Shown here in pieces: positions 36,626 to 60,299 of a stretch of DNA of 64,000 nt. The notes under the pieces were generated by a model. It made no database searches, was not told the origin of the DNA, and saw only the letters and a program-made list of their open reading frames with translations. The position numbers and the translations under genes were made by a program. Source of the DNA: Spirochaetes bacterium GWF1_51_8. GTDB lineage: Bacteria > Spirochaetota > Brevinematia > Brevinematales > GWF1-51-8. The stretch lies in NCBI GenBank assembly GCA_001829415.1, contig MIBE01000006.1, positions 52,300 through 116,299 of the forward strand, written 5' to 3'. Numbering within the stretch: position 1 is the first letter of the stretch; each line of letters opens with the position of its first letter.

Positions 36626-37651
36626 GTGAAAACATTATCTTTGTGTAAATTAGCGGCGGTTTCTGTCTTAATTTTCGGAATATCGGCATGCGATTCTATT
36701 ACCAAGGTGAGATTTTATTTTTATTCTTCATATCATACGAATGTACTTCTTGTTAAATCGCCTTTCACCAATAAAAACGATTTTATTCTCTTGGAAAAGA
36801 CTAATGATTATTTTTTTATAGATATTGTAGTTACCAATAAATTGCACTACTACTTTGTTGCGGACGGTCAGGATACGATCGACCCGTTTGCGAATAAAAT
36901 ATATGCTCAATATATTGTTTTTCAACCTACATCCAGTTCGTCTACATCTAATATTCAACAGAAGCTGTTTATCAGCGATCATTTCGATTACTTTTCCCGG
37001 TCGGGAGTAGATAAAAGCGGAGAATTAGAAGGGTATTTTATAAAACTCACCAATTTCCTCTATCCTCTGAGTCCTAAAATGATGAAACCGAAAATTCGCT
37101 ACTATACACCGGAATTTGTATCGATACCCGTAAGCTTGTTTGCGAAATACGATACCAGCGAGATTTTCGATTCATGGGACTGTTCCTCCTCACATGAAAT
37201 GATTCACACGTTAATAAATATCAGCAACCATCCCTTAAACGAAGGGCAAGCGCAGTGTTTTCAAAAAGAGGGTAATCTTATTTATAAAGAACAGAATGTG
37301 AATCTCGTCAGTCAGAAATATATGAAGCAAGTCGTAGAAGGAACTGTAAAAGCTAAAACAAGCATTTATAGTTTAATATCGGATCAAAATATGTTTTATA
37401 ACAACAAAAAAATATATGGTAATTCTTACCATCTTGTCGGTTCGTTTATTTTCTATAACTGGTATGTACTGGACGATGCGGCAAGATTTTCGAAATTTCT
37501 GTTAAGCCTGAATACCAACGATAACGGTGATGCAATGACCAATAAATATACCCAGTATACCGGCAGAGATTTTTCGGAAGTCGAAACTCAGTGGGCTGAC
37601 TGGTTACTGACAATAAATTCGAACTCTGACATCTATGTAGGGTGGGATTAA
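36626..37651 (+). CDS. AT-rich lipoprotein with HExxH motif (putative zinc metallopeptidase), N-terminal E-set/CBM48-like domain
   Basis: GTG start after AAGGAAGGAGG, lipobox IFGISAC. N-terminal VRFYFYSSYHTNVLLVKSPFTNKNDF...YYFVADGQDTIDPFAN. HEMIH in CSSSHEMIHTLINIS. Codon usage is visibly A/T-rich compared with the neighbours. Confidence 0.8.
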   Translation: MKTLSLCKLAAVSVLIFGISACDSITKVRFYFYSSYHTNVLLVKSPFTNKNDFILLEKTNDYFFIDIVVTNKLHYYFVADGQDTIDPFANKIYAQYIVFQPTSSSSTSNIQQKLFISDHFDYFSRSGVDKSGELEGYFIKLTNFLYPLSPKMMKPKIRYYTPEFVSIPVSLFAKYDTSEIFDSWDCSSSHEMIHTLINISNHPLNEGQAQCFQKEGNLIYKEQNVNLVSQKYMKQVVEGTVKAKTSIYSLISDQNMFYNNKKIYGNSYHLVGSFIFYNWYVLDDAARFSKFLLSLNTNDNGDAMTNKYTQYTGRDFSEVETQWADWLLTINSNSDIYVGWD

Positions 37652-41265: not shown

Positions 41266-41706
41266 TTATGGATTATTACTTTCATAAATCTCTGTTCCAT
41301 AGCCAGCTAACTCTGCCCCTGCTACAATAAATAGGATTAATACTATTAATGCGAACAACACCAATAAATATCTGAAAATTTTTATTCTTTTATCATTCAG
41401 ATTATCATAATATTCTATTATCTTTTCAACCCTACTCTTATTAAAGTAAAAAATATTAAATATAAAAATAATCAAAATTAATGGTATTGTAATATAATAC
41501 TGGTAAAACACTTTTGAAAGACGATATAGTTTAAACACAGAAACAACAAGAAAATAGTATATTCCAGCTACCGTAACGGCAATTTCTGTTTTTGGAAGCC
41601 ACCTTGCGTAAATGGGATCCCCATCTACTAAAATGGTTTCCTTTGATAGGTTGATTTGATTTCTATAAATAGCATAAAATATTAAATCATAAAAGTTGAA
41701 ATACAT
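41266..41706 (-). CDS. AT-rich orphan membrane protein (3-4 TM), unknown function
   Basis: ATG at 41706 after AGGAGA (MYFNFYDLIFYAIY...). Hydrophobic stretches IAVTVAGIYYFLVVSVF, ITIPLILIIFIFNIFYF and LLVLFALIVLILFIVAGA. Very A/T-rich codons unlike the flanks. Confidence 0.65.
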   Translation of the reverse strand: MYFNFYDLIFYAIYRNQINLSKETILVDGDPIYARWLPKTEIAVTVAGIYYFLVVSVFKLYRLSKVFYQYYITIPLILIIFIFNIFYFNKSRVEKIIEYYDNLNDKRIKIFRYLLVLFALIVLILFIVAGAELAGYGTEIYESNNP

Positions 41707-41871
41707 TTTTATTCTCCTATCCCAAACCGTCCTCAATTATTCAACTCATTGTAATCTGTTTCACAAAAGATGTCACGGAATCCCCGCTGCCGCCCCGATC
41801 CCGCCCTAAACTTCCCTTTTTCGACGATTCCGGTTAAAATATGTCTCACTGCTTTTCCGGCGAGGTGTCCT

Positions 41872-44947: not shown

Positions 44948-45259
44948 ATGGATAAGAAAACCTTGATTTCCCTCGGGGAACTGAAAAAACGATATTTACC
45001 GGAAGGATTTTCTATTATCGGGGTTTTCGGTTCATTTGCAAGAGGGCAGGAAACCGAGAAAAGCGATATCGATATCCTTTACGAGGTCGATGAAAAATTC
45101 CTGAATAAATATACCGGTCTGGACGCCTATGTCCGGCTCGATAAAATCAGACTTGAAATCCGGAGGTCAATACACAGGAATATTGATCTTGTGAACAAAA
45201 ACTCTCTCAGAAAGTCCGGTAAGAAAAATATATTGTCGGAAACCGTGTATGTCGAATGA
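44948..45259 (+). CDS. mntA: MNT-type nucleotidyltransferase antitoxin (MntA)
   Basis: GVFGSFARGQETEKSDIDILYEV (GSxxRG...DxD minimal nucleotidyltransferase motif). Overlaps the hepT start. Confidence 0.9.
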   Translation: MDKKTLISLGELKKRYLPEGFSIIGVFGSFARGQETEKSDIDILYEVDEKFLNKYTGLDAYVRLDKIRLEIRRSIHRNIDLVNKNSLRKSGKKNILSETVYVE

Positions 45260-45596
45260 ATCCGATATTGTCAGGCTTCAATTCATTTATGACCTGATCG
45301 ACGATTTGGAGGAAATCCTGGCAAAGTATCGCGATATAAACGAAGCATTCGAGGATGTCGCCGGATACCATGCCCTGACAATGTGCCTGCTTCAAATCGG
45401 GGAGAAAATGGCGAAAATCCAATCTCCTGAGTATAAGAAGCGGCTGCCGGTGAAAAAAATCTACCATTTTAGAAATATTTTAGCGCATGAATATGAGAAC
45501 ATAGATATTCAATTAGCGAAAAGTTTGATACAGAACAGTATGCCCGGATTGAAAAAAGAAATAGAAGAAATTTTATCCAAAGGTAAAAAACAGTGA
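45249..45596 (+). CDS. hepT: HepT (DUF86, HEPN) toxin
   Basis: Rx4HxY HEPN motif in FRNILAHEYENID. 115 aa. 11-nt overlap with mntA. Confidence 0.9.
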   Translation: MSNESDIVRLQFIYDLIDDLEEILAKYRDINEAFEDVAGYHALTMCLLQIGEKMAKIQSPEYKKRLPVKKIYHFRNILAHEYENIDIQLAKSLIQNSMPGLKKEIEEILSKGKKQ

Positions 45597-50121: not shown

Positions 50122-50149
50122 AGCCTCGGCGGAAGCCGGGGCTTTTTTT
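50122..50149. terminator. bidirectional rho-independent terminator between bfr and the PIN pair
   Basis: AGCCTCGGC (50122-50130) / GCCGGGGCT (50135-50143), GGAA loop, T-run 50143-50149. Confidence 0.85.
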
Positions 50150-50534
50150 ATTCTGTGGTGATTTGAATTTCAGTAGACAGAAAATTGTTTTTAAGGATTT
50201 CAATTTCTTTTTTACATTGGGATTTTGTAGGAAAGCTCTCACTCGAATAAATGATATCTCCGGTAGAATTCTTTAGTCTAAACTGATACTCGTTATTTTT
50301 ATTTTTAAAAATTTCATATTTTAAAATAGAACTATGTTGAATGTTTTCCGAATACTTCTTAGCCTCATTAAATAATTCTTCCGCGCTTATTCCTTTGAAT
50401 ATATCTTTTCGCCACTCAGTATAATCGAAATTATCTTTTTTAATAAGATTGATAAACTTTTCCGATTCAACCAACCCAAGGTTTTCCCGCAGGACTTTCA
50501 TTCCCTCATATCTGATAACGCTATCGGCTTTCAT
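50148..50534 (-). CDS. PIN-partner protein: short N-terminal antitoxin-like region fused to a YegP/DUF1508-like domain
   Basis: ATG 50534 overlaps the PIN stop (ATGA). N-terminal LGLVESEKFINLIKKDNFDYTEWRKDIF. C-terminal KYEIFKNKNNEYQFRLKNSTGDIIYSSESFPTKSQCKKEIEILKNN fits the YegP repeat pattern. A/T-rich. Confidence 0.75.
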   Translation of the reverse strand: MKADSVIRYEGMKVLRENLGLVESEKFINLIKKDNFDYTEWRKDIFKGISAEELFNEAKKYSENIQHSSILKYEIFKNKNNEYQFRLKNSTGDIIYSSESFPTKSQCKKEIEILKNNFLSTEIQITTE

Positions 50535-50980
50535 TTCGCCTCCCACATTAAAACAAAATCTACTGGATTGAATACTTCAATCACTTCAAGATTTTTGCTT
50601 TTTCTTAAAATATCCTTGTCTGTGGTTAAAAAGTATTCGCATTTCGCATAAATCGCACATGCTAAGTGAAGGGAATCTAAAGACTTCATTCTGTTTTTTA
50701 CCTCAATTTCCCTCGCAATGGATTTTATCTCTAATTTCGCAGGAATATACTTTGCAGATAAAAATCTCCAGACACTAATATTATCACGTTTATCGTTGTA
50801 GGGATTTTTAGAGTTTTCGAAATCCAATGCGAAAGACCAAACCAAACTCAGATTCTTCATTCTAATTTGATCCTGAATAGACAGTTTTGCTTCAGATTCA
50901 AGAATTATCGTTTCATTTACTGGATCGTCAAAAGGTCTGTTATAACAGCAATTGTCTAAATATATAAGCAGTTTCTCCAT
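50531..50980 (-). CDS. PIN-domain ribonuclease toxin (VapC-like)
   Basis: Acidic quartet candidates in IYLDNCCYNRPFDD, LESEA, SLDSLHLACAI and FLTTDKDIL. 149 aa. A/T-rich. Confidence 0.85.
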   Translation of the reverse strand: MEKLLIYLDNCCYNRPFDDPVNETIILESEAKLSIQDQIRMKNLSLVWSFALDFENSKNPYNDKRDNISVWRFLSAKYIPAKLEIKSIAREIEVKNRMKSLDSLHLACAIYAKCEYFLTTDKDILRKSKNLEVIEVFNPVDFVLMWEAK

Positions 50981-51046: not shown

Positions 51047-51076
51047 TAAAAACCGCCCCCATTGCTGAGAGCGGCT
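51047..51076 (-). terminator. weak candidate terminator after the biosynthetic operon
   Basis: Minus strand GCCGC...GCGGU (5 bp including one G-U, 14-nt loop) followed by UUUU. Weak. Confidence 0.3.
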
Positions 51077-51117: not shown

Positions 51118-51675
51118 TCATTCGTCCAAGAACATCACCTCGGCGATCGATACCGAGCAGATTTTGCCGTCGGATATAATCTGACTCAATACCGTGCCGA
51201 ACGTGCCGTCGTATTCGAGGCGTTTCGCGATCATCTGCGCGGTCTTACCCGGCAGAAGCTGATCGAGGAACATCGCGCCGAGAACCTTTGTCACAAGAAC
51301 GCTCACCGGTTTCGCGCCGGGGGCGATGTCCGTCCGCTTGTTCACCACAAAGTAGGTGAGGCAGAGACCCAATTGCCCGCCCATTTCGAGCTGGAGCGAT
51401 CCCGGATAGACCGGATGCCCCGGGAAATGCCCCGCGAAAAGCGGCTCGGCCGGATCGATATAACGGGAACCGAAAATCAGTTCCTCGTTCTCGGTCAGGT
51501 CGACACCTTGAAGGCTGTCGACGAGCAGGAACGGGGCGCGGTGCGGGATAATCCGTTCGATAGCGTCACGCCCGTACTCGAGCTTCGCGAAGGAACCGCG
51601 TTCCTTTAACGATTCAATATCCGCGATAGGCTTTTTCCGGTAACGCCGAAGGAGCGTTTCATGAGCTTCATTCAC
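51118..51675 (-). CDS. FabZ/FabA-like 3-hydroxyacyl-ACP dehydratase (hot-dog fold)
   Basis: IIPHRAPFLLVDSL and FAGHFPGHPVYPGSLQLEMGGQL are the FabZ catalytic His/Glu motifs. Overlaps the AOS stop by 8 nt. Confidence 0.88.
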   Translation of the reverse strand: MNEAHETLLRRYRKKPIADIESLKERGSFAKLEYGRDAIERIIPHRAPFLLVDSLQGVDLTENEELIFGSRYIDPAEPLFAGHFPGHPVYPGSLQLEMGGQLGLCLTYFVVNKRTDIAPGAKPVSVLVTKVLGAMFLDQLLPGKTAQMIAKRLEYDGTFGTVLSQIISDGKICSVSIAEVMFLDE

Positions 51676-52948
51676 CGAGCATCCCTTTCGCTTTTAGTTT
51701 CTTAACAATCACGTCTTCGATAATATTCAGCGCTTCGTCCATCACTTCCCGTTCGATCTGCGCGGTCATCGAGAGGCGGAAACGGCGCTCGTGCGCGGGG
51801 ACGGCGGGGAAGTCCACCGGCTGAAGGAACAAGCCTTTCAACTGGAGCTCGGTCGCCAATTCGAACAAGAGTTCTCCGGACGACCCGACGATGATCGGAA
51901 TGACCTGAGATTGGGTACCGCCGAGATTGAGCTTCATCGCCTGGAGCTTATCTTTGAAATACTTGGTGTTTTCCCAGAGCTTATCGCGCAGGGACGAATC
52001 GCGGGTGGCGACTTCGAGCGACTTCATCAACCCGCAGACAATCGCGGGCGAGGGAGCGCAGGAGAAGTTGAACGCCGAGGCGTAACCGCGGAGATACTTC
52101 ACGATCAGCGCGTTCGAGCAGATAAATCCGCCTACGCCGCCGAACGATTTCGACAGTGTCCCGTAGTCCATGCCGACCTTATCTTCGAGACCGAAATGCT
52201 CTCCGACCCCGCGTCCGTTCTTGCCGAACATGAGCGAGGAATGGGCTTCGTCGAGATACAGCGCGACATTCGGGTAGGAACTGTCGATCATCTGGGTAAT
52301 CTCGGGAAGTTTCACAAGGTCTCCGTCCATCGAATAAACCCCTTCGACGGCGAGAAGGGTGCGCTTTCCTTTATGCTCGGAAAGGATCTGATCCAGATGC
52401 TGCATATCGTTATGCTTGAAAAAGATCATTTTCGCGCCGGATAGAATACCGCCGTCAACAAGACTCTTATGAATCTTCTCGTCCATGACTAAAATATCGC
52501 CTTTGCGGAGCAAGCCCTGCAATGCGCCTACATTGCCGCCCAATCCGCTCGAGAAAAGGATACAATCCTCTTTCTTCTTGAAGTCGGCGAGCTTTTTGGC
52601 GAACTGCACGTGGACGTCGAACGTACCGGAAAGCATCGGCGAACCCGATGCGCCCATCCCGTACTTCTTGACCCCGTCGATAACAGCCTGGATAACTTCA
52701 GGATGAGTGGAAAGGCCGAGGTAGTTATACGACGTGAAATTGATCACACGGCGGTCTTTACCGTCGATATTGCTGTGAATTTTCGTCACTGAACGGGGCG
52801 CGTCCAACAGCATCTGATGGAAAAAGCTGAAACCCGCCTGGATTTGAGGGTCCTGTATCCACTCGAGGAAATCCGAAGGGGGAGTTAATACGTTCGGACT
52901 ATCGTTATAGAAAAAGTCCGCTAAACTAAAACTTAATGCGTTTTTCAT
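51668..52948 (-). CDS. alpha-oxoamine synthase family PLP enzyme (serine palmitoyltransferase / CqsA / BioF-like acyl-thioester:amino acid C-acyltransferase)
   Basis: NFTSYNYLGLSTHPEV, AVEGVYSMDGD, DEAHSSLMFG and PLP lysine in GTLSKSFGGVGGF. ATG 52948 (MKNALSF...) lies 16 nt after the ACP stop. Confidence 0.92.
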   Translation of the reverse strand: MKNALSFSLADFFYNDSPNVLTPPSDFLEWIQDPQIQAGFSFFHQMLLDAPRSVTKIHSNIDGKDRRVINFTSYNYLGLSTHPEVIQAVIDGVKKYGMGASGSPMLSGTFDVHVQFAKKLADFKKKEDCILFSSGLGGNVGALQGLLRKGDILVMDEKIHKSLVDGGILSGAKMIFFKHNDMQHLDQILSEHKGKRTLLAVEGVYSMDGDLVKLPEITQMIDSSYPNVALYLDEAHSSLMFGKNGRGVGEHFGLEDKVGMDYGTLSKSFGGVGGFICSNALIVKYLRGYASAFNFSCAPSPAIVCGLMKSLEVATRDSSLRDKLWENTKYFKDKLQAMKLNLGGTQSQVIPIIVGSSGELLFELATELQLKGLFLQPVDFPAVPAHERRFRLSMTAQIEREVMDEALNIIEDVIVKKLKAKGMLGE

Positions 52949-52964
52949 AATTTCTCTTCCGATT

Positions 52965-53207
52965 TTATTTTGCCTGCTCCATGAACTTGTCGGCAAGCTG
53001 GTCGATTGTAGAAATGTCCGCGAGTTCTGACCTAGGGATCTTGATATTCAGTTCGCGCATCGAGGTGGAAACGACTTCGATAATATCGAGGCTGTTGGCA
53101 CCGTAATCCTTCATCGACTTCTTAGGATCGATGTCGGCTTCGTTCAAATCCTCAAGGTTATCGAGGATGTTTTTCTTGATAACCTTAATCACATCTGCTT
53201 TCGTCAT
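52965..53207 (-). CDS. acyl carrier protein
   Basis: 80 aa, GGAGGA SD, phosphopantetheine Ser in DYGANSLDIIEVV. Confidence 0.9.
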   Translation of the reverse strand: MTKADVIKVIKKNILDNLEDLNEADIDPKKSMKDYGANSLDIIEVVSTSMRELNIKIPRSELADISTIDQLADKFMEQAK

Positions 53208-53227
53208 TTTTATTCCTCCAAACTGAT

Positions 53228-54043
53228 TTATTCTTTATTCTGGGTTTCTTTCCATGTCAGGTACTGGGTCATGATATTGTCCTGGAACGGGTAGCCTTTA
53301 TCGACCGTGACGATCTGACCGTTCATCGCATCGAAGAGGCCCGAGCAGAGTCCGAACACGGCCTTTCCGCATTCGTCGGGATTGAGGATCGTTTCCTCGG
53401 GGATACCGCGCTGACGGACGAAGTCGAAGAACGATTCGCCGAAGATATACATAAACGACTCGGTTTTGACCGGGCCGAAACGGATGACGTTGACACGGCT
53501 TCCTTCCTTCTGGAGATGCACCGAGAGGTATTTCCCGAAGAACTCGAGAAGCGCCTTCGACGCCGCGACAAAATCGTAGCCCTTGTAGTAATGCGACGGG
53601 CCGTCGCTGGAAATACCGATCACATGATCGGGGTATTTGCCGAACACCCTTTTGATCTGGCGGGTGTATTCGATCAACGGCCATGTGCTGTAGTCGAGAG
53701 TTTTATAGAGCGAACGTTTCTGGTACTCGTCGAGGTTCTTGGGGCTTTGGGCGAATCCCACGTTACTGATGAAATAATCGATAGCGGTCTCTTTCTCCTT
53801 TACCTGTGCGAGGAGCGCGGCGGTGTCTTCGTCGTTGGAGACGTCGGCCTGGATCAGGACCGGTTTGATCGCGCCGGCGTTCTCGAACTCGGCGAAAAGA
53901 GGAGCATAGTCGTCCGAACCCCACTTGTAGGAGAGGTATGTCCGCGCGCCCGCTTTCGCGAAATACAGCGCAGACGATAGTCCGATACCCTTCGTGCCCC
54001 CAGTGATTAGAACCGCTTTATCCTTCATATCGATCGAAAACAT
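53228..54043 (-). CDS. SDR-family reductase, enoyl-ACP reductase-like (FabI/FabL-type Y-x6-K)
   Basis: Rossmann VLITGGTKGIGLS. The catalytic spacing YDFVAASK (Y-x6-K) is typical of enoyl reductases rather than the Y-x3-K of ketoreductases. Confidence 0.85.
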   Translation of the reverse strand: MFSIDMKDKAVLITGGTKGIGLSSALYFAKAGARTYLSYKWGSDDYAPLFAEFENAGAIKPVLIQADVSNDEDTAALLAQVKEKETAIDYFISNVGFAQSPKNLDEYQKRSLYKTLDYSTWPLIEYTRQIKRVFGKYPDHVIGISSDGPSHYYKGYDFVAASKALLEFFGKYLSVHLQKEGSRVNVIRFGPVKTESFMYIFGESFFDFVRQRGIPEETILNPDECGKAVFGLCSGLFDAMNGQIVTVDKGYPFQDNIMTQYLTWKETQNKE

Positions 54044-54070
54044 ATGTACCCCTATGCAGATGATAGATTT

Positions 54071-54820
54071 CTATTGTCCCGCGTAGAACTCTTCGATTGT
54101 CTTCCGGGTTTCAGGAAAACCGAACGAAAGCTTGTGCATCATGTCTTCCTGGAGCCGGGCATCGACAAGAAGTTTCCTGCGCCTTGCGCTGAGAGTGTAT
54201 TTTAATAGCTGAATAGATTTTATATTCTTTTCCGCGATTTGTAAAGCAATATCACCGGCCTTTTTCATGACATCGGCGCGCGGAACGATGTAATTGATGT
54301 TCGTGCCCATCCCTGCAAGCTCGCTTCCCTTGTAGCGCTTTCCCGTATACATCATCTCGTTCGACACAAACACGCCGAACAGGTCGGGCAGGAGGGTAGT
54401 GCATCCCATCCCGGGAGTGAAACCGAGCGACATGAACACGACGCCGTAACGGCTTTCGCGCGCGGCGATCACGATATCACAGCACGCCGCCATCACCAGC
54501 CCGCCGCCTACGGCATGGCCTTCCATCGCCGCGATCACGGGGACTGTCGAATGCACGAGGCGTTCGGAGATCACGAGGTCCTTGACATGCACGGTGCCGT
54601 CGCAGAGGTCCATCAGGTTCTTCTTTTCGGCGCCCGCCGCGAATACGTCGGACAAGCCGTGCAGGACGATTACCTTCGGATTCATCGACTCGGCCTTTTC
54701 CATACCGGCGACCAGTTCGGCGATGAAGTCGTCGGAAAACACATTCTTCTTCGCCTCGTCGCACATATGCAGGTAAACAATCCCGTGTTCGTCGGCGCGG
54801 ATTTTAATTCTATCGCTCAT
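54071..54820 (-). CDS. crotonase-superfamily enzyme, ECH2 (PksI-like decarboxylase) position
   Basis: Crotonase oxyanion-hole pattern LHGLSDVFAAGAE and IAAMEGHAVGGGLVMAACCDIVIAA. ACGGAG SD lies in the 11-nt gap after the inserted cassette. Confidence 0.88.
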   Translation of the reverse strand: MSDRIKIRADEHGIVYLHMCDEAKKNVFSDDFIAELVAGMEKAESMNPKVIVLHGLSDVFAAGAEKKNLMDLCDGTVHVKDLVISERLVHSTVPVIAAMEGHAVGGGLVMAACCDIVIAARESRYGVVFMSLGFTPGMGCTTLLPDLFGVFVSNEMMYTGKRYKGSELAGMGTNINYIVPRADVMKKAGDIALQIAEKNIKSIQLLKYTLSARRRKLLVDARLQEDMMHKLSFGFPETRKTIEEFYAGQ

Positions 54821-54831
54821 GTTAACTCCGT

Positions 54832-55590
54832 TTAATGATATTCTCTATTGAAAAATGCTACACTATTTGACTGAAAGTCTTGAAAATCGGGAAAGATTTT
54901 GTCCGAAGCGGATTCTAAGCGTCTTCTATCTTTGTTTCTGATCACATCAAAATCACGTAATACGCTTACGCTTCTAAACTGGATATTTCTTTTTTGAAAC
55001 TCCAATAAACAAATGGTAGCGATTTTTGATTTATCCGAGTTGTTTATTCCAAATAAATATATCGGTTTAGATAATGAATTAAAAACATAATCTACCTCAA
55101 GATCGTCCCGCTCGGGAATAGGGAAAACATTTTTCTCAAAAGGAAACTCCGATAGATTATCCTGGATAAATTCTTCCAGCATTTCATAAAACAAATCTTG
55201 TATTATCTCTCGTTTGAAGTATTCCATTGTAGAAACTTTTAAAACAGCCTCAATAAAAGTCATAATGGAATTAAATAGTAATGGTAAATCGCAAATTAGA
55301 TAAATACTCATATTATCTTCATTAACTCTATTTTGCGCAATGATTTTTTTAAAAATTTCTTCCTTTTTTGGCGTATCAATTTCATATGAATAGGAGAGAC
55401 GCATCACAGTCATTCCTAAATCCGAAATTTTTATTTTATTATCCGATAAAGGAATAATATAGACTTCAACAATATCACCATCCTCATAAAAAAAAGGAAT
55501 GATGACCTGATATATACCTTCTCTTCGTTCACGGATAATGAATTGTCCATGGCATTGAGTATTCAGGGCTTTTTCAATTATTTCTCTCAT
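54832..55590 (-). CDS. AT-rich protein resembling DUF1828/DUF1829 proteins (unknown function)
   Basis: ATG 55590 preferred (track TTG 55599). N-terminal YQVIIPFFYEDGDIVEVYIIPLSDNKIKISDLGMTV and C-terminal VDYVFNSLSKPIYLFGINNSDKSK...FRSVSVLRDFD recall the DUF1828 + DUF1829 architecture. This is recognition from memory, not a search. Confidence 0.7.
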   Translation of the reverse strand: MREIIEKALNTQCHGQFIIRERREGIYQVIIPFFYEDGDIVEVYIIPLSDNKIKISDLGMTVMRLSYSYEIDTPKKEEIFKKIIAQNRVNEDNMSIYLICDLPLLFNSIMTFIEAVLKVSTMEYFKREIIQDLFYEMLEEFIQDNLSEFPFEKNVFPIPERDDLEVDYVFNSLSKPIYLFGINNSDKSKIATICLLEFQKRNIQFRSVSVLRDFDVIRNKDRRRLESASDKIFPDFQDFQSNSVAFFNREYH

Positions 55591-55611
55591 ATAAAACAAC
55601 TCTTTTTTACA

Positions 55612-56091
55612 TTAATTAAAAAGCGGTATTTCATCTATGCCGTTCAAACAATTGAAGTATTGTTTCGCCTCAATCATATTTGTAAATTCCAAAAAATATA
55701 ATAAAGCGCTTTCAAAACTAGTATATTTATCGGTCTTTTCAGCGAAATTTTCCGCTTTGTACCCATTTTCTATCGCGTTTTGTGTAGCGATATGAATATG
55801 AAATCCTGAAACAATTGACCCGTCTTCATTTTTATGATCACCGTGGTTTCCATTAAATCGTAATAGAACAATTTGTGCTTCGTTTTTTGGGTGATAGATT
55901 AAACCAATCGAAAAGGCATCGATTAGATTTTTATTCTTTCTCATGAAAACTGAAAACGTATTATCTTTATTATCCGATACAACTAACAATTTATTTCTTA
56001 AATCCTGCCCGCAGTCCTTAAACTCTCTAAGCGGTTTTTCAAGCACATTCTTTTTTTGACGAATAAGGTTTGTTATTTCCTCATTATTCAT
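55612..56091 (-). CDS. AT-rich 159-aa protein of unknown function (His-rich core)
   Basis: ATG 18 nt after the ECH1 stop with AAAGGA upstream. Only salient motif is LLRFNGNHGDHKNEDGSIVSGFHIHIAT. No TM, no signal peptide. Confidence 0.7.
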   Translation of the reverse strand: MNNEEITNLIRQKKNVLEKPLREFKDCGQDLRNKLLVVSDNKDNTFSVFMRKNKNLIDAFSIGLIYHPKNEAQIVLLRFNGNHGDHKNEDGSIVSGFHIHIATQNAIENGYKAENFAEKTDKYTSFESALLYFLEFTNMIEAKQYFNCLNGIDEIPLFN

Positions 56092-56109
56092 TCTTCAATC
56101 CTTTTTCTC

Positions 56110-56922
56110 TTAGTCGATCCGCACGAGCGGATTCGAAAATTTCGCTTTCCCGAACCACGGCGGCGTCGATCCTTCGCTGAACGCTTTTATTCCCTCGAGG
56201 ACGTCGTCCCGCGAGATCAGTTCTATTAATGTTTTCTTGGCGTGGTTGCACGATTCGTCTATTGTCTTGGAGAGGAGTTCACGCGTGAAATGCTTGGTCA
56301 CAGCCACCGCGGAAGGCGCGGTACGGAATAGGCTCTTGATGAGCGCTTTTGCCCCTTTCTCCAGCTCGTCCATCGGGTAGACCTCGTCGATAATCCCGAT
56401 CGACTGCGCATCGAGGGCGTTCAGCCGTTTCGCGGTCATGATGAGATAGCGCGCTTTTTGAGGGGAGATCCGGAGCGAAAACAGGAACGGCAGGACGTTC
56501 GCGGGGATCAGCCCGAGCAGGGCTTCGCTCAGTTCGACCGTGGTGTCGTCCGACGCGATTACTATGTCGCACGCGGATACAAGCCCGGTGCCGCCGGCCT
56601 TGATATCGCCGTAGACTAATGCCACGACCGGTTTAGGAGCCTCAAAGATTTTTAACAGGAGATCGGTGTAGAGACCGACTGCTTCCTCGGCGAGCGTTGT
56701 GTCGCCCCGCGCGTCCAGCAGGAACTGCAAGTCCATCCCGAGGGAAAAGTTTTTCCCGTTTGAACGGAGCAATATGACGCGGATTTCGTCGTGCATGATC
56801 GCGGCATTGAAAGCGTGGGACAATTCGGCGAGGGTTTCATGGTTCAGGCGGTTCCCGTTCGCGGAGTCCGCGAGGGTGATAATTCCCAGACCGTTATCGG
56901 CCAGAAACTCGACTTTTCCCAT
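56110..56922 (-). CDS. crotonase-superfamily enzyme, ECH1 (PksH-like dehydratase) position
   Basis: LLRSNGKNFSLGMDL and VALVYGDIKAGGTGLVSACDIVIAS crotonase motifs. 3-nt gap after the HMGS gene. Confidence 0.88.
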   Translation of the reverse strand: MGKVEFLADNGLGIITLADSANGNRLNHETLAELSHAFNAAIMHDEIRVILLRSNGKNFSLGMDLQFLLDARGDTTLAEEAVGLYTDLLLKIFEAPKPVVALVYGDIKAGGTGLVSACDIVIASDDTTVELSEALLGLIPANVLPFLFSLRISPQKARYLIMTAKRLNALDAQSIGIIDEVYPMDELEKGAKALIKSLFRTAPSAVAVTKHFTRELLSKTIDESCNHAKKTLIELISRDDVLEGIKAFSEGSTPPWFGKAKFSNPLVRID

Positions 56923-56925
56923 TTG

Positions 56926-58155
56926 TTACACCCGTTCGTAGGTCCTGAAAAAGTCCTTGACTTCCTTCAGAACCAGTTTGCCCGATCCTTTATAAAACTT
57001 ATCGTACCAGTTATCCGCTACCGAGAAATCGGGAGTGAAATTCGGATTCTCGATATAGCTTTCGCGGAGATTTTCGATTTTCTCATACTCGGCGACCGAT
57101 ACTTTCCGGCGCGCGTCGAAAGCCTCGTCGATCTTCATCGAGTCGATGGTCTTTCTCGCCTCGGGGCAGACAAGGGCGCTGTAATACTCGCCCATACATC
57201 CCGAGCCGTAGGAGAACAGTCCGATACGGTCGCCCGCTTTGAGGGCGTCGTTCGTCTTGATCACTCCGCAGAGGCCGACAAAGTTGCTGGCGCCGTAGGT
57301 CGAACCCACACGTTTCGCGTAACGGAGCGAGGGTAAAGTCTTGATCTTGAAATGCTCTTCGATCTGGGACTTCTTGCTGATCCCGGCGATCTTGCAGAGC
57401 ACTCTGTGCCCATGGAACGCCATTCCGGGGAAGGGCATATGATAGATGTTGTTGACAAAATACTTATCGAAGTCGATCGTGCCGCCGACCTTGGCGAGAT
57501 AGTCCATATACGCGCCTTCGAGCGCGTCCTGGTAGCTGTAAAGGCTGACTTCGTTATTCCCGACTTCGGCATGCGCGGACGGCCTGAACGTATCGTAGAC
57601 ATTGGTCGTCCACGAACCCTTCTTCTCGATCTCATACTCGATGACCTTCGGGGTGTCGCTGACTAATACCGCGGCCGCTGTTCCGCCGAGGACGAACTCG
57701 TGGTCTTTATTGAAATGCTTCCTGCTGAAGTCGGCGGCGATCACAAGCGCCTTTTTACCGTGGTTCAGCCCCGATGCGATCCAGTTGATCGCGGTATCGA
57801 GAGCGGCGACGCCGCTGTAGCATGCATGCTTCGTTTCATAGGTACGGACATTGGGATTGAGGCCGAGCGCGGCGTGGATATTTGTCGAGATCGGCTTCCC
57901 GAAATCGACGGAACCTTCCGTACCGACAATCAGCATCCCGATATCTTTCTTATCTTCTTCGGATATGATCGGGATCGCGGCGTTCGCGCCCATAGTGACC
58001 GTATCCTCATATGGGGGGTTGAGCGAACGGGTATCGATCATGAAATCGGTGAGGACACGTTCGGGATCGCGGCCGCGCGCCTTCGCGAGGTCGACCTGTT
58101 CCATCGAGAGCGAACACCCGTAGATATTGATTTTCTCTATACCGACTTTCTTCAT
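56926..58155 (-). CDS. HMG-CoA synthase family enzyme (PksG-type HMG-ACP synthase by context)
   Basis: Catalytic triad motifs LIVGTEGSVDFGKP (Glu), ETKHACYSGVAAL (Cys) and NIYHMPFPGM (His), plus FSYGSG. ATG 58155 sits 9 nt after GGAGG. Confidence 0.92.
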   Translation of the reverse strand: MKKVGIEKINIYGCSLSMEQVDLAKARGRDPERVLTDFMIDTRSLNPPYEDTVTMGANAAIPIISEEDKKDIGMLIVGTEGSVDFGKPISTNIHAALGLNPNVRTYETKHACYSGVAALDTAINWIASGLNHGKKALVIAADFSRKHFNKDHEFVLGGTAAAVLVSDTPKVIEYEIEKKGSWTTNVYDTFRPSAHAEVGNNEVSLYSYQDALEGAYMDYLAKVGGTIDFDKYFVNNIYHMPFPGMAFHGHRVLCKIAGISKKSQIEEHFKIKTLPSLRYAKRVGSTYGASNFVGLCGVIKTNDALKAGDRIGLFSYGSGCMGEYYSALVCPEARKTIDSMKIDEAFDARRKVSVAEYEKIENLRESYIENPNFTPDFSVADNWYDKFYKGSGKLVLKEVKDFFRTYERV

Positions 58156-58183
58156 AATAAGCATCCTCCAGAAATTTTTCAGG

Positions 58184-58924
58184 TTACGGGGCGTAAGTCA
58201 ATCCGCCGGATACGCGGATTACCTCGCCGTTTATAAAACTTGCTTCATCGGAACTCAGAAAATAAACAGTACTCGCGATATCCTCGCCCGTACCGACACG
58301 TTTCAACGGACAGTACTGCATCCAGAACTCATGCAGGGGTTTCGCGAGATTGTCCTTCGTCATATCGGTCTCGACATATCCCACCGTGACGACATTGGAC
58401 GTGATGCCCTTAGGGCCGTATTCCTTAGCGAGAGTCTGGGTCATCCCGATCAAACCCGCTTTCGCGGCTGAATAGTTGACCTGTCCCGAACACCCGGCTT
58501 GCGCGAGCGACGAGATATTGATGATCCGTCCGTCGCGGTTCGAGATAAAATGCATGAGGAACATGCGGATGATATAGAAGGGACCCGAAAGGTCGGCCGC
58601 GATCACTTCTTCCCATTCCTCGTTGCTCATAAGAGCCGCGGCGTTATTCCTGACCACGGCGGCGTTGTTCACCACCGCGCGGATATCTCCGAAATCGTCG
58701 AGCGCTTTTTCGACGACCGTTTCCACTTCAGCCGACGACTTGACGTCGAGACGGTAGTAACGGACTTCCGCTTTGGGATTGATCTCTTTAGCGAGTTTAA
58801 CTGTTTCCTTAGCGGCGTCTTCGTTGCCGACATAAGTAAACCCGCAGCCCCATCCTTCCTTAATATATTTCAGGACGATGGCTCTGCCGATACCGCGCGA
58901 GCCTCCAGTCACAAAAGCGTTCAT
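58184..58924 (-). CDS. 3-oxoacyl-ACP reductase (FabG-like SDR)
   Basis: FVTGGSRGIGRA, NNAAVV and YSAAKAG (Y-x3-K). 246 aa. 3-nt gap after the KS gene. Confidence 0.92.
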   Translation of the reverse strand: MNAFVTGGSRGIGRAIVLKYIKEGWGCGFTYVGNEDAAKETVKLAKEINPKAEVRYYRLDVKSSAEVETVVEKALDDFGDIRAVVNNAAVVRNNAAALMSNEEWEEVIAADLSGPFYIIRMFLMHFISNRDGRIINISSLAQAGCSGQVNYSAAKAGLIGMTQTLAKEYGPKGITSNVVTVGYVETDMTKDNLAKPLHEFWMQYCPLKRVGTGEDIASTVYFLSSDEASFINGEVIRVSGGLTYAP

Positions 58925-58927
58925 AGT

Positions 58928-60217
58928 CTATCCTTCATATTTTTTTATCAGGGAACAGCAGTTGAGGCCGCCGAAACCGAACGAGTTCTTGATGAAGATG
59001 TTTACCGGGTAATCGACGGGGCCGTCCTTGCAGACATCGAGATCGATCGAGGGATCGAGTTCGTCTATGTTGATAGTCTGGTGAAGCCTGCCGTGGTTCA
59101 TCTGGAGCACCGCGCCGACCAATTCGACCAGCGGAGCCGCCCAGCAGGTGTGACCCATCAATGACTTGGGAGCGTTTACTTTCATCTTGTATGCATGCGC
59201 TCCGAACGCCTTCTTGATAGCGGCGAGCTCGGTGTCGTCGCCGAGCGGGGTTCCGGTAGCATGACAACTGATAAAATCGACTTGTTCGGGACGGATGCCG
59301 CCCATCTTCATGAGGTTGAGCATCAGCGCCGATTGCGCGTCCGCGGACGGCTGGGGCAGATGGTTCGCGTTGGCGTTCGCGGCCACACCGAGTATCTCGG
59401 CGTAAATCTTCGCGCCGCGCGCTTTCGCGTGATCGAGATCTTCTATCACGACCGTCGCCGCGCCGTGCGAGGCGATGAAACCGGATCGTTTTATATCGAA
59501 CGGGCGCGAGGCCTTCTCGGGGCACTCGAGCCATTGCGGGTCGACCACGAGCGCGCTCAGGTAACCCATCGCGTGAACATCGGATTCGTTCATATCCCAT
59601 ATCGGGCCGGAGATGACCGAAGCGTCGCATTCGCCGGTAACGATATCGCGGAAACCGTCACGCAGGGCGATATTCCCGCTCGCGCATGCCGCGCCGAGGT
59701 TGTACGCCGGGCCCTGGATACCGAGCACTTCGCTGATCGTGCCGGGGATGTTCGGGTCGAGCGCCTCGATACCGTAAAGCGGATCGATATATTCCGGTTC
59801 CTTATCGAATTGGTGAATCTGTTCCATCACATACTTGGTGTTGAAATTGTGCCCGCCGACCATGGCGCTGATCCGGTACGGGTCAAAATCCTTACCGAAC
59901 AACCCGGCGTCGATAAACGCCTCGAGAGCGGTGATGACCGCGGACTTGTTTGAAAAGGTCATATTGCGGTAGAGCTTGCGGATTTTCTTGTACTGCTCTT
60001 CGCTGAGAAACGGTTTTTTACGTTCGAGCGCGGCGGCAAAATCGTAGTCGCCGAGGTCGCCCCCGAGTTTGCACTCGACCTTCGATACGTCGATCGAATG
60101 CCATTTCTTGACACCGGATTTTCCGGCCATCATGCTTTCATAATATCCTTCAAGGGTGTCGCCTATCGGATTGATAGTCGCCATTCCCGTAATCACAACG
60201 CGTTTAAGATTTGCCAT
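58928..60217 (-). CDS. beta-ketoacyl synthase (KS, Cys-His-His intact)
   Basis: LGAACASGNIAL (Cys), ISCHATGTPLGD (His), KSLMGHTCWAAP (His), NSFGFGGLNCCSLI. ATG 60217 with AAGAGGGA upstream is preferred, because ATG 60250 would lie only ~20 nt from the -10 box. Confidence 0.92.
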   Translation of the reverse strand: MANLKRVVITGMATINPIGDTLEGYYESMMAGKSGVKKWHSIDVSKVECKLGGDLGDYDFAAALERKKPFLSEEQYKKIRKLYRNMTFSNKSAVITALEAFIDAGLFGKDFDPYRISAMVGGHNFNTKYVMEQIHQFDKEPEYIDPLYGIEALDPNIPGTISEVLGIQGPAYNLGAACASGNIALRDGFRDIVTGECDASVISGPIWDMNESDVHAMGYLSALVVDPQWLECPEKASRPFDIKRSGFIASHGAATVVIEDLDHAKARGAKIYAEILGVAANANANHLPQPSADAQSALMLNLMKMGGIRPEQVDFISCHATGTPLGDDTELAAIKKAFGAHAYKMKVNAPKSLMGHTCWAAPLVELVGAVLQMNHGRLHQTINIDELDPSIDLDVCKDGPVDYPVNIFIKNSFGFGGLNCCSLIKKYEG

Positions 60218-60270
60218 CCCCAAGTCCCTCTTGTTTATTGTAAGTAACATATCTCTATTCTAACTCTAAT

Positions 60271-60299
60271 ATAATAATGGCAACCCCTATTTTTGTCAA
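60271..60299 (-). promoter_or_regulatory. near-consensus sigma70 promoter of the KS-...-DH operon
   Basis: Minus strand TTGACA (60299-60294) - 17 nt - TATTAT (60276-60271). Confidence 0.6.

Follow-up and report, generated by a model that had tools for sequence, protein, structure and literature searches.

The window analysed here, a 64-kb stretch of DNA from Spirochaetes bacterium GWF1_51_8, carries on its minus strand, at positions 54832-56091, two tightly packed genes between ECH1 and ECH2, the two crotonase genes of a lipid or polyketide biosynthetic operon. This block is probably a horizontally acquired, promoter-less module of defence type, which pairs a DUF6978 gene (gene 1) with a DUF1828 gene (gene 2) and is embedded in the ECH1-ECH2 spacer. 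The two genes correspond to the components of PDC-M24, a catalogued family of candidate defence systems, and the cassette is a divergent member of that family in an unusual host context. The host is a groundwater metagenome-assembled genome whose close relatives are labelled Brevinematales, and identical proteins are found on contigs from Rifle aquifer groundwater metagenomes.

The cassette is delimited by sharp borders of both coding content and base composition. Gene 1 (55612-56091, 159 amino acids) starts with an ATG at 56091, and gene 2 (54832-55590, 252 amino acids) extends from an ATG at 55590 to a stop codon at 54832-54834. An alternative upstream TTG would lengthen gene 2 to 255 amino acids; the 252-residue form is identical to a database protein. 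Upstream, ECH1 (56110-56922; Pfam ECH_1, E 4.8e-44) terminates at 56110-56112, and downstream, ECH2 (54071-54820; Pfam ECH_1, E 1.2e-43) begins with an ATG at 54820, so that all four genes lie on the minus strand. As read from the sequence, the spacer between ECH1 and gene 1 comprises 18 nt (56092-56109) and contains a Shine-Dalgarno-like AAGGA at 56099-56103, whereas the spacer between the two cassette genes comprises 21 nt (55591-55611). The 11-nt spacer between gene 2 and ECH2, ACGGAGTTAAC (54821-54831), carries the ECH2 Shine-Dalgarno sequence GGAG. An earlier note on this DNA had described razor-sharp, co-oriented borders with gaps of 18 and 11 nt and a preserved ECH2 Shine-Dalgarno sequence, all of which is confirmed. 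The same note had pointed to an A/T-rich block, and the GC content of the cassette is indeed 0.310 versus 0.511 in the whole window. Among all 1260-nt segments of the 64 kb, the one starting at 54831 has the lowest GC content (z = -5.1 relative to the rest), placing the minimum at the cassette. GC content at third codon positions (GC3) is 0.30 in gene 1 and 0.27 in gene 2, compared with 0.64-0.73 in the other operon genes, and at both borders GC drops from ~0.55 to ~0.33 over ~40-80 nt.

Comparison with orthologous operons identifies the cassette as an insertion that is foreign to the pathway. When 185,579 species genomes were searched with the HMGS protein, 14 orthologous operons were recovered, which belong to Brevinematales/Spirochaetota, FCPU426, Aminicenantes and Firestonebacteria. 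Of these operons, 13 extend as far as the junction, and in every one ECH1 and ECH2 are direct neighbours, separated by ~10-335 nt, with neither gene 1 nor gene 2 present. A metagenome scan with ECH2 added 16 junction-spanning operons, in which the two genes are again always adjacent (gaps of 13-97 nt). The pair is therefore missing from 29 of the 29 other orthologous operons that span the junction (13 + 16), over several phyla, in agreement with the earlier expectation that HMGS, ECH1 and ECH2 genes are normally contiguous and with the proposal that the module stands outside the pathway. The sole other carrier lineage found is represented by JGI contig L007 (the same in Logan assembly L008), where the cassette occupies the same position. 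A close relative of L007, with 96-99% identity in KR, HMGS, ECH1 and ECH2, is Spirochaetes bacterium GWF1_49_6 (L009, likewise seen as L031). Its site is empty and reads GACGAAGACACTAAGGAATAACGGAGAGCCTATG (empty-site sequence GACGAAGACACTAAGGAATAACGGAGAGCC). The flanks of L007 and L009 differ by a single mismatch in ~300 nt to the left of the cassette and by none in ~120 nt to the right. The site is also empty in Brevinematales DeMMO6_14 (L010), which is ~88% identical to L007. The assignment of the cassette as an insertion follows from its absence in the 29 orthologous operons and from the empty site of the near-identical L009. All five contigs with an identical ECH2, which represent the window's own population, carry the cassette, and an empty allele is thereby ruled out among these five.

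These comparisons effectively refute the view that the two proteins are integral tailoring enzymes of the beta-branching pathway, such as a lipid-modifying pair recruited into the operon. The co-orientation and tight packing of the pair inside the operon would suit such a role, as would the purifying selection that keeps it at the same place in two diverged lineages. However, 29 orthologous operons over several phyla lack the pair, as does a strain that shares ~98% identity with a carrier, and the base composition of the pair is foreign. Moreover, in the contexts that were read, its homologues reside in prophages beside repressors and in restriction-modification neighbourhoods, and never with polyketide or fatty-acid genes. 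The earlier note had named the same genes at the same position with a host-like composition as grounds for refuting a foreign module; the second carrier does not present this picture, because its copy also has a GC content of 0.28-0.29.

The junctions of the two carriers are homologous to within 1-3 nt. The left junction reads GAC TAA GAG AAAAAGGATTGAAGA ATG in the window and GAC GAA GAC AGAAAAGGAACTTTAA ATG in L007, the 18-nt spacer of the window being homologous to the corresponding stretch of L007. At the right end, both carriers run into (A)ACGGAG ahead of the ECH2 ATG, and the Shine-Dalgarno GGAG is likewise found at the empty sites of L009 and L010. The ECH1 protein of the window ends in ...VRID*, a few residues short of the ...RIDEDTKE* of empty-site relatives. 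In L007 (9169-10008), the ECH1 frame continues for 9 codons past the cassette border, which gives an 8-nt overlap with the start of gene 1. Because the frame is extended in one carrier and shortened in the other, the insertion has reshaped the ECH1 C-terminus differently in the two lineages.

The cassette lacks the usual marks of mobile DNA. The earlier note had reported no integrase, transposase, direct repeats or tRNA, and the scans agree: no tRNA is present in the whole window, no integrase or transposase occurs among the genes called within ~10 kb of the cassette, and no repeats bracket it beyond short chance-level matches. No Rfam family was detected within 49-62 kb. An integron attC site is not found at the 3' end of the cassette, where 11 nt without a hairpin separate the gene 2 stop from the ECH2 start and no integrase is nearby. 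Signs of a transposon or insertion sequence are likewise missing: no transposase or terminal inverted repeats were found, and comparison of empty and occupied sites reveals no target-site duplication. A 12-nt repeat, AGCGGATTC(G/T)AA at 56126 and 54907, is attributed to chance, since it matches neither the compositional borders nor those of homology.

Several lineages have enlarged ECH1-ECH2 spacers of another kind. In the distant orthologous operons of L011 (5884-6218), L012 (6429-6616) and L014 (8929-9040), the spacer has grown to 112-335 nt through palindromic or repeat elements, an example being the directly repeated and palindromic GTAGGGAACGGTCGCGACCG of L014. No cassette remnants were found in these longer spacers, which contain small palindromic repeat elements instead. 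The ECH1-ECH2 spacer seems to tolerate insertions in several lineages.

Both cassette genes belong to catalogued protein families. Gene 1 matches DUF6978 (PF22398; E 2e-14, 54.4 bits versus a gathering cut-off of 29.6) with residues 1-138 on positions 1-132 of the 133-position model, PADLOC PDC-M24A over nearly its full length (E 5.8e-10), and phrog_27326 (PHROG E 1.4e-21). Gene 2 matches DUF1828 (PF08861; E 5e-16, 59.2 bits versus a cut-off of 22; model positions 2-91 of 91), PDC-M24B (E 1.2e-15) and, over its full length, phrog_5059 (PHROG E 1.5e-25). All 45 gene 2 relatives likewise match both DUF1828 and PDC-M24B. The DUF1828 + DUF1829 architecture suggested earlier holds for its first element only, as DUF1829 (PF08862) finds no match at E <= 1 in the gene 2 protein or in 44 relatives. 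DUF4143 matches, which add to the case for a nuclease-like fold, are present in 3 members of the gene 2 family, and NCBIfam provides no match for either cassette gene.

The comparison with PADLOC is based on the hidden Markov models of its library. Component A directly precedes component B on the same strand, with a 21-nt gap. PDC systems are 145 untested defence candidates in PADLOC, which Payne et al. identified by 'guilt-by-embedding' (bioRxiv 10.1101/2024.01.29.577857). They were defined by their embedding in BREX, DISARM, type I restriction-modification or Hma operons, and 96.7% of them are co-oriented (bioRxiv 10.1101/2024.01.29.577857). The cassette resembles these candidates in being nested, co-oriented, inside another operon; unlike them, it resides in a biosynthetic operon rather than in one of these four kinds. 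The earlier statement that the function of the pair is unexplained therefore needs qualification, since the pair is already catalogued as a defence candidate, although no functional study of the pair, and no paper testing PDC-M24, DUF6978 or DUF1828, was found in the literature searched. A further parallel is DS-6/HipAD, which combines a HipA-like kinase with a DUF3037/DUF1829 protein (DefensePredictor; PMC13092281). It is the sole validated defence system involving DUF1829 in the literature searched, and Pfam usually pairs DUF1829 with DUF1828. In contrast to DS-6/HipAD, the cassette has no detectable DUF1829 and no kinase, and the partner of its DUF1828 protein is DUF6978.

The pair is a conserved unit under purifying selection. 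Elsewhere, it typically occupies the immunity region of temperate phages, where it immediately follows the repressor gene. Contexts were scored with profile hidden Markov models built from the gene 1 and gene 2 alignments. Wherever the context leaves room, a gene 1 homologue immediately precedes the gene 2 homologue, and the two are kept together in this order in at least 22 of 23 contexts, including L007, L023, L027, L030, L059, L060, L062, L078, L081 and 12 IMG/VR viral contigs. In L023, L030, L065, L073 and L075, the pair directly follows the gene of a CI-type repressor (HTH_3 + Peptidase_S24) in the same orientation. Such repressor-adjacent pairs occur in a Dehalobacterium prophage, in the Pseudomonas phages 5399, phita81A and 5371, and in three viral contigs, with gaps between repressor and pair as short as 14-44 nt. 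An ImmA-like protease is encoded upstream of the pair in L067, and an integrase gene comes after the pair in L023 and L065. In L027, L059 and L062, the pair adjoins type I or IIG restriction-modification genes, and a further context lies upstream of hisS-aspS. The matches to PDC-M24A and PDC-M24B, the retention of the pair in these contexts and its presence in prophage immunity regions bear out the earlier proposal of a two-gene module of mobile or defence type. The module is widespread and phage-borne, and it usually lies where the promoter of another gene can transcribe it.

Phage lambda offers a precedent for this arrangement. Its rexAB genes occupy the same position downstream of the repressor, and cI-rexA-rexB are co-transcribed. 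Homologous pairs follow a CI-type repressor directly in at least five prophages or phages, and a two-gene module that depends on the promoter of another gene follows the logic proposed here for the cassette. The cassette proteins themselves have no sequence or fold relation to RexA or RexB, and the operon that would drive the cassette is chromosomal and metabolic, with no prophage present. Apart from the phage contexts, L060 and L061 (2920-5756) carry the pair co-oriented right after the infC-rpmI-rplT operon, which consists of strongly expressed core genes.

The structure predicted for gene 2 points to a probable nuclease-like domain. In the AlphaFold2 model (pLDDT 88), an N-terminal beta/alpha domain is followed by a 44-residue helix and then by a C-terminal alpha/beta domain. 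Foldseek searches of the PDB with this model return Cdn1, VC1899, Can2, Hjc resolvases, AF1548, Bax1, the R2 restriction-like endonuclease, RecU, OkrAI and HincII at the top. Almost all of these matches are PD-(D/E)xK proteins, with probabilities of up to 0.97 and a best E-value of 2.5e-3. The order of predicted secondary-structure elements fits the alpha-beta-beta-beta-alpha-beta core, at weak Foldseek support (E >= 2.5e-3). In the family alignment, whose mean column identity is 62%, E36-D-G-D39, D57, K118, E165, D221, R224 and D230-K231 are invariant, and D162, D163, D167 and K187 are nearly so. D162, D163, E165 and D167, together with K187, make up a conserved acidic cluster with an accompanying lysine. 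From the model, the C-terminal domain is probably restriction-endonuclease-like. Can2, Card1, Cdn1 and VC1899, effectors of type III CRISPR signalling that join a sensor to a PD-(D/E)xK nuclease, are the best Foldseek matches of the gene 2 model (E 2.5e-3 to 3e-2) and have a layout similar to the predicted one, with an N-terminal domain followed by a C-terminal restriction-endonuclease-like domain. On the other side, TM-scores are <=0.3 with an rmsd > 10 A, the N-terminal domain of gene 2 is a beta-meander with helices that does not resemble a Rossmann-like CARF domain, sequence similarity is absent, and no cyclic-oligonucleotide synthase is encoded nearby.

Gene 1 belongs to a large family, with 699 cluster representatives recovered in an exhaustive search. 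Across its alignment, K14, N80, H98 and H100 do not vary, and R78, G81 and H83 are nearly invariant. The AlphaFold2 model, which is of very high confidence (pLDDT 95.8, pTM 0.89), places an antiparallel sheet of about seven strands between an N-terminal helix and the helices of the C-terminus. The conserved histidine cluster lies with the lysine, arginine and asparagine on the beta-sheet, and gene 1 may for that reason be a catalytic or metal-binding protein. Two specific motif readings were rejected. The R-x4-H motif (RFNGNH), which could recall HEPN proteins, is located in the beta-strand region of a beta-rich model and not in a helical bundle, and the H-I-H-I motif, which could recall HIT proteins, is accompanied by no HIT protein among the fold matches. 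None of the Foldseek matches of gene 1 is significant; they are best for 25-phosphosteroid lyase, p32 and AFV1 ORF157, at probabilities of <=0.2 in the PDB, and reach only E >= 0.06 in BFVD. Sequence profiles of both cassette families detect nothing among all PDB chains, even at E <= 10.

The operon that hosts the cassette (51118-60250, minus strand) is organised as KS, KR, HMGS, ECH1, [cassette], ECH2, SDR, ACP, a class I/II aminotransferase and a FabA-like gene. In consensus scans, the region's best promoter-like site (60271-60299, minus strand; TTGACA-17-TATTAT, 11/12) is found shortly before KS, and a terminator-like hairpin follows the FabA-like gene, the last of the operon (51051-51076, minus strand). 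The former is a candidate promoter for a transcript extending through the cassette, and the latter a candidate end of the transcription unit. The same scans reveal nothing convincing in the way of a promoter or terminator at the cassette borders. It is therefore plausible that the cassette rides on operon transcription, given one predicted transcription unit and no convincing promoter or terminator of its own. Apart from the cassette, the gene order KS, KR, HMGS, ECH1, ECH2, SDR, ACP, alpha-oxoamine-synthase-like aminotransferase and FabA-like is conserved in L009-L022 and L031-L050, spanning Spirochaetota, FCPU426, Aminicenantes, Firestonebacteria and many metagenome contigs. The product of the operon is perhaps a beta-branched amino-lipid.

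Under the reading preferred here, transcription of the cassette would depend on read-through from the operon promoter, and its translation on Shine-Dalgarno sequences of its own. Its products may act as an anti-phage exclusion or abortive-infection module, in which an N-terminal DUF1828 domain of gene 2 would serve in sensing or partner binding and be coupled to the C-terminal PD-(D/E)xK-like nuclease, with gene 1 as the catalytic or metal-binding partner of gene 2. Defence or exclusion is the best-supported candidate function, on the strength of guilt by association in several independent contexts and of the nuclease-like domain.

Some of the same features could describe a toxin-antitoxin addiction module without a role in phage defence, which persists because its loss kills the cell. 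The toxin would perhaps be gene 1, rich in histidine, lysine and arginine, acting as an RNase and neutralised by the other protein. As a small, tightly linked, A/T-rich pair, the cassette resembles two islets of the window, MNT + HepT (44948-45596) and PIN + DUF1508 (50148-50980), and the strong purifying selection on the pair agrees with such a role. In the hot-spring genome represented by L025 and L026 (4245-6765), the gene 1 homologue is split by a Transposase_mut gene, while the downstream DUF1828 gene is intact and followed by an integrase gene. This is the pattern expected if gene 1 is the dispensable toxin, and the survival of gene 2 next to a broken gene 1 hints that gene 2 is harmless by itself. 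Nevertheless, an addiction module is rather unlikely. Neither gene matches a toxin or antitoxin family in Pfam or NCBIfam, no DNA-binding antitoxin domain is found, and a RelB-like match at E 0.2 is the only hint. The clean loss of the cassette in a near-identical strain argues against strong addiction, and proteins of 252 and 159 amino acids, with a nuclease-like domain in the larger one, are atypical of type II pairs. Because many toxin-antitoxin pairs also defend against phage, this alternative overlaps with the defence-type module favoured here.

The two carriers also allow the age of the cassette to be assessed. Between the window and L007, the flanking genes show 72-83% identity in DNA and 74-93% in protein, and the cassette genes 75% in DNA and 75-76% in protein. 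By the Nei-Gojobori method, the proportion of synonymous differences (pS) is 0.69 for gene 1 and 0.73 for gene 2, values that are saturated, compared with 0.54-0.66 for host genes. It follows that the two cassette copies separated at least as long ago as their hosts. The ratio of nonsynonymous to synonymous change (dN/dS) is 0.09 for gene 1 and 0.05 for gene 2, and such low values indicate purifying selection and hence that both genes are functional. The earlier claim of a recent acquisition is too simple in view of a lineage diverged by ~20% that holds the cassette at the same position, with pS of 0.69-0.73 and dN/dS of 0.05-0.09; yet a strain 96-99% identical to this second carrier has an empty site.

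On the tree (window, ((L007, L009), L010)), occupancy is yes, yes, no and no for the four taxa in that order. Two histories fit this distribution: a single old insertion with two or more clean losses or allele swaps after it, or repeated entry at one site. The simplest is a single old and dispensable insertion that would have been lost, or replaced by the empty allele, through homologous recombination among related strains. Recombinational exchange is favoured by patches of ECH1 in which L007 and L009 differ by 6-8% and to which both strains contribute derived sites. One of these is a 374-nt patch (L007 9313-9686) that is ~8% divergent in strains otherwise ~98-99% identical. The derived sites on both sides suggest recombination mosaicism inside ECH1. 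Import of the cassette together with diverged flanks by homologous recombination is not supported, as the flanks of L007 are essentially identical to those of the empty-site strain, and the ~8% patch lies 300-670 nt away and holds derived sites from both strains.

The same-site occupancy and the clean polymorphism may reflect a homing-like or recombination-mediated allele exchange. In its selfish form, the nuclease-like protein would cut the empty ECH1-ECH2 junction, and repair from an occupied allele would copy the cassette in, much as free-standing homing endonuclease genes spread between conserved phage genes. The insertion point is the same within 1-3 nt in two lineages diverged by ~20%. 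Presence and absence are polymorphic among strains 96-99% identical, whose flanks show one mismatch in ~300 nt and none in ~120 nt, and target-site duplications, inverted repeats, integrase and transposase are all missing. The putative PD-(D/E)xK-like domain of gene 2 would supply the nuclease, the recombination patches are close by in ECH1, and a GC3 that has not moved towards that of the host despite saturated divergence fits repeated re-introduction. A homing-type element is still quite unlikely, because family members reside in many unrelated contexts without ECH genes, such as the repressor-integrase region of prophages and restriction-modification genes, and because a strictly conserved two-gene unit is atypical of homing endonuclease genes. 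With only two occupied lineages versus 29 empty ones, there is no sign of homing spread, and the cassette proteins match no Pfam homing endonuclease family (LAGLIDADG, GIY-YIG, HNH or other). A further proposal is that the DUF6978-DUF1828 pair is a self-mobilising, promoter-less defence cassette, whose own nuclease-like protein directs homology-assisted, homing-like insertion into short spacers of actively transcribed operons, with gene 1 as an enzyme of a fold unseen in solved structures. This proposal is speculative and quite improbable; if true, it would explain the same-nucleotide occupancy, the clean presence/absence polymorphism and the 'embedding' of small defence systems in operons.

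Several observations weigh against an acquired, promoter-less defence module of PDC-M24 type. The PADLOC scores are modest: the PDC-M24B model (positions 20-156 of 255) covers only the N-terminal half of gene 2 (residues 21-158), and PDC-M24A is matched by only 17 of 73 gene 1 relatives. The cassette is placed on a divergent branch of PDC-M24 because of these scores. No PDC-M24 member has been shown to defend against phage in the literature searched, and other PDC candidates failed when tested. With respect to structure, the Foldseek matches of gene 2 are weaker than E 1e-3 and have low TM-scores, a canonical (D/E)xK motif could not be placed in the protein, and gene 1 has no structural or sequence analogue in Foldseek searches of the PDB and BFVD or in profile searches of PDB chains. 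Co-transcription is predicted from spacing and consensus scans. As to the history of the cassette, a single old insertion needs at least two clean losses, and the empty alleles of L009 and L010 share an ACTAAG that the occupied alleles do not have. A cassette GC3 of 0.15-0.30 despite saturated synonymous sites, in a host with a GC3 of ~0.7, is also awkward for long residence. A/T-richness is not a requirement of the family, because members elsewhere track the GC content of their hosts (0.50-0.54 in a host of 0.57, and 0.31 in a host of 0.31).

The family was already listed as a defence candidate, and the finding is accordingly a useful case rather than a new class. It provides a clean natural example of a defence-type cassette inside a metabolic, and not a defence, operon, with empty and occupied alleles in near-identical strains. 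These alleles make the nesting of small defence systems in operons concrete and testable. In addition, DUF6978, DUF1828 and PDC-M24 are linked with PHROGs 27326 and 5059 as one obligate pair, which is usually repressor-proximal in temperate phages. An A/T-rich island that keeps a GC3 of ~0.15-0.30 in a host of ~0.7 despite saturation also bears on the use of composition as a clock of acquisition.

Other A/T-rich islets are scattered over the window. Just past the terminator-like hairpin of the operon, and with a promoter-like site of its own, an islet at 50148-50980 (minus strand, GC 0.32-0.33) encodes a PIN-domain protein (149 amino acids) that overlaps a 132-amino-acid protein with DUF1508 at its C-terminus. 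At the corresponding place, L007 carries a PIN gene that is only 54% identical, a divergence greater than that of the host genes, and next to it a shorter partner follows. At 44948-45596 (plus strand, GC 0.39-0.40), an MNT-type nucleotidyltransferase gene, which also matches PADLOC PDC-S09, precedes a gene for a HepT-like RNase; together they form a classical toxin-antitoxin pair between host genes of GC 0.56-0.58. An open reading frame of 156 codons at 41266-41736 (minus strand, GC 0.28) has no Pfam or PADLOC match, and one of 341 codons at 36626-37651 (plus strand, GC 0.36) has only a weak match to Peptidase_MA_2. With several such islets in the window, small A/T-rich accessory insertions are a general feature of this stretch of the genome.

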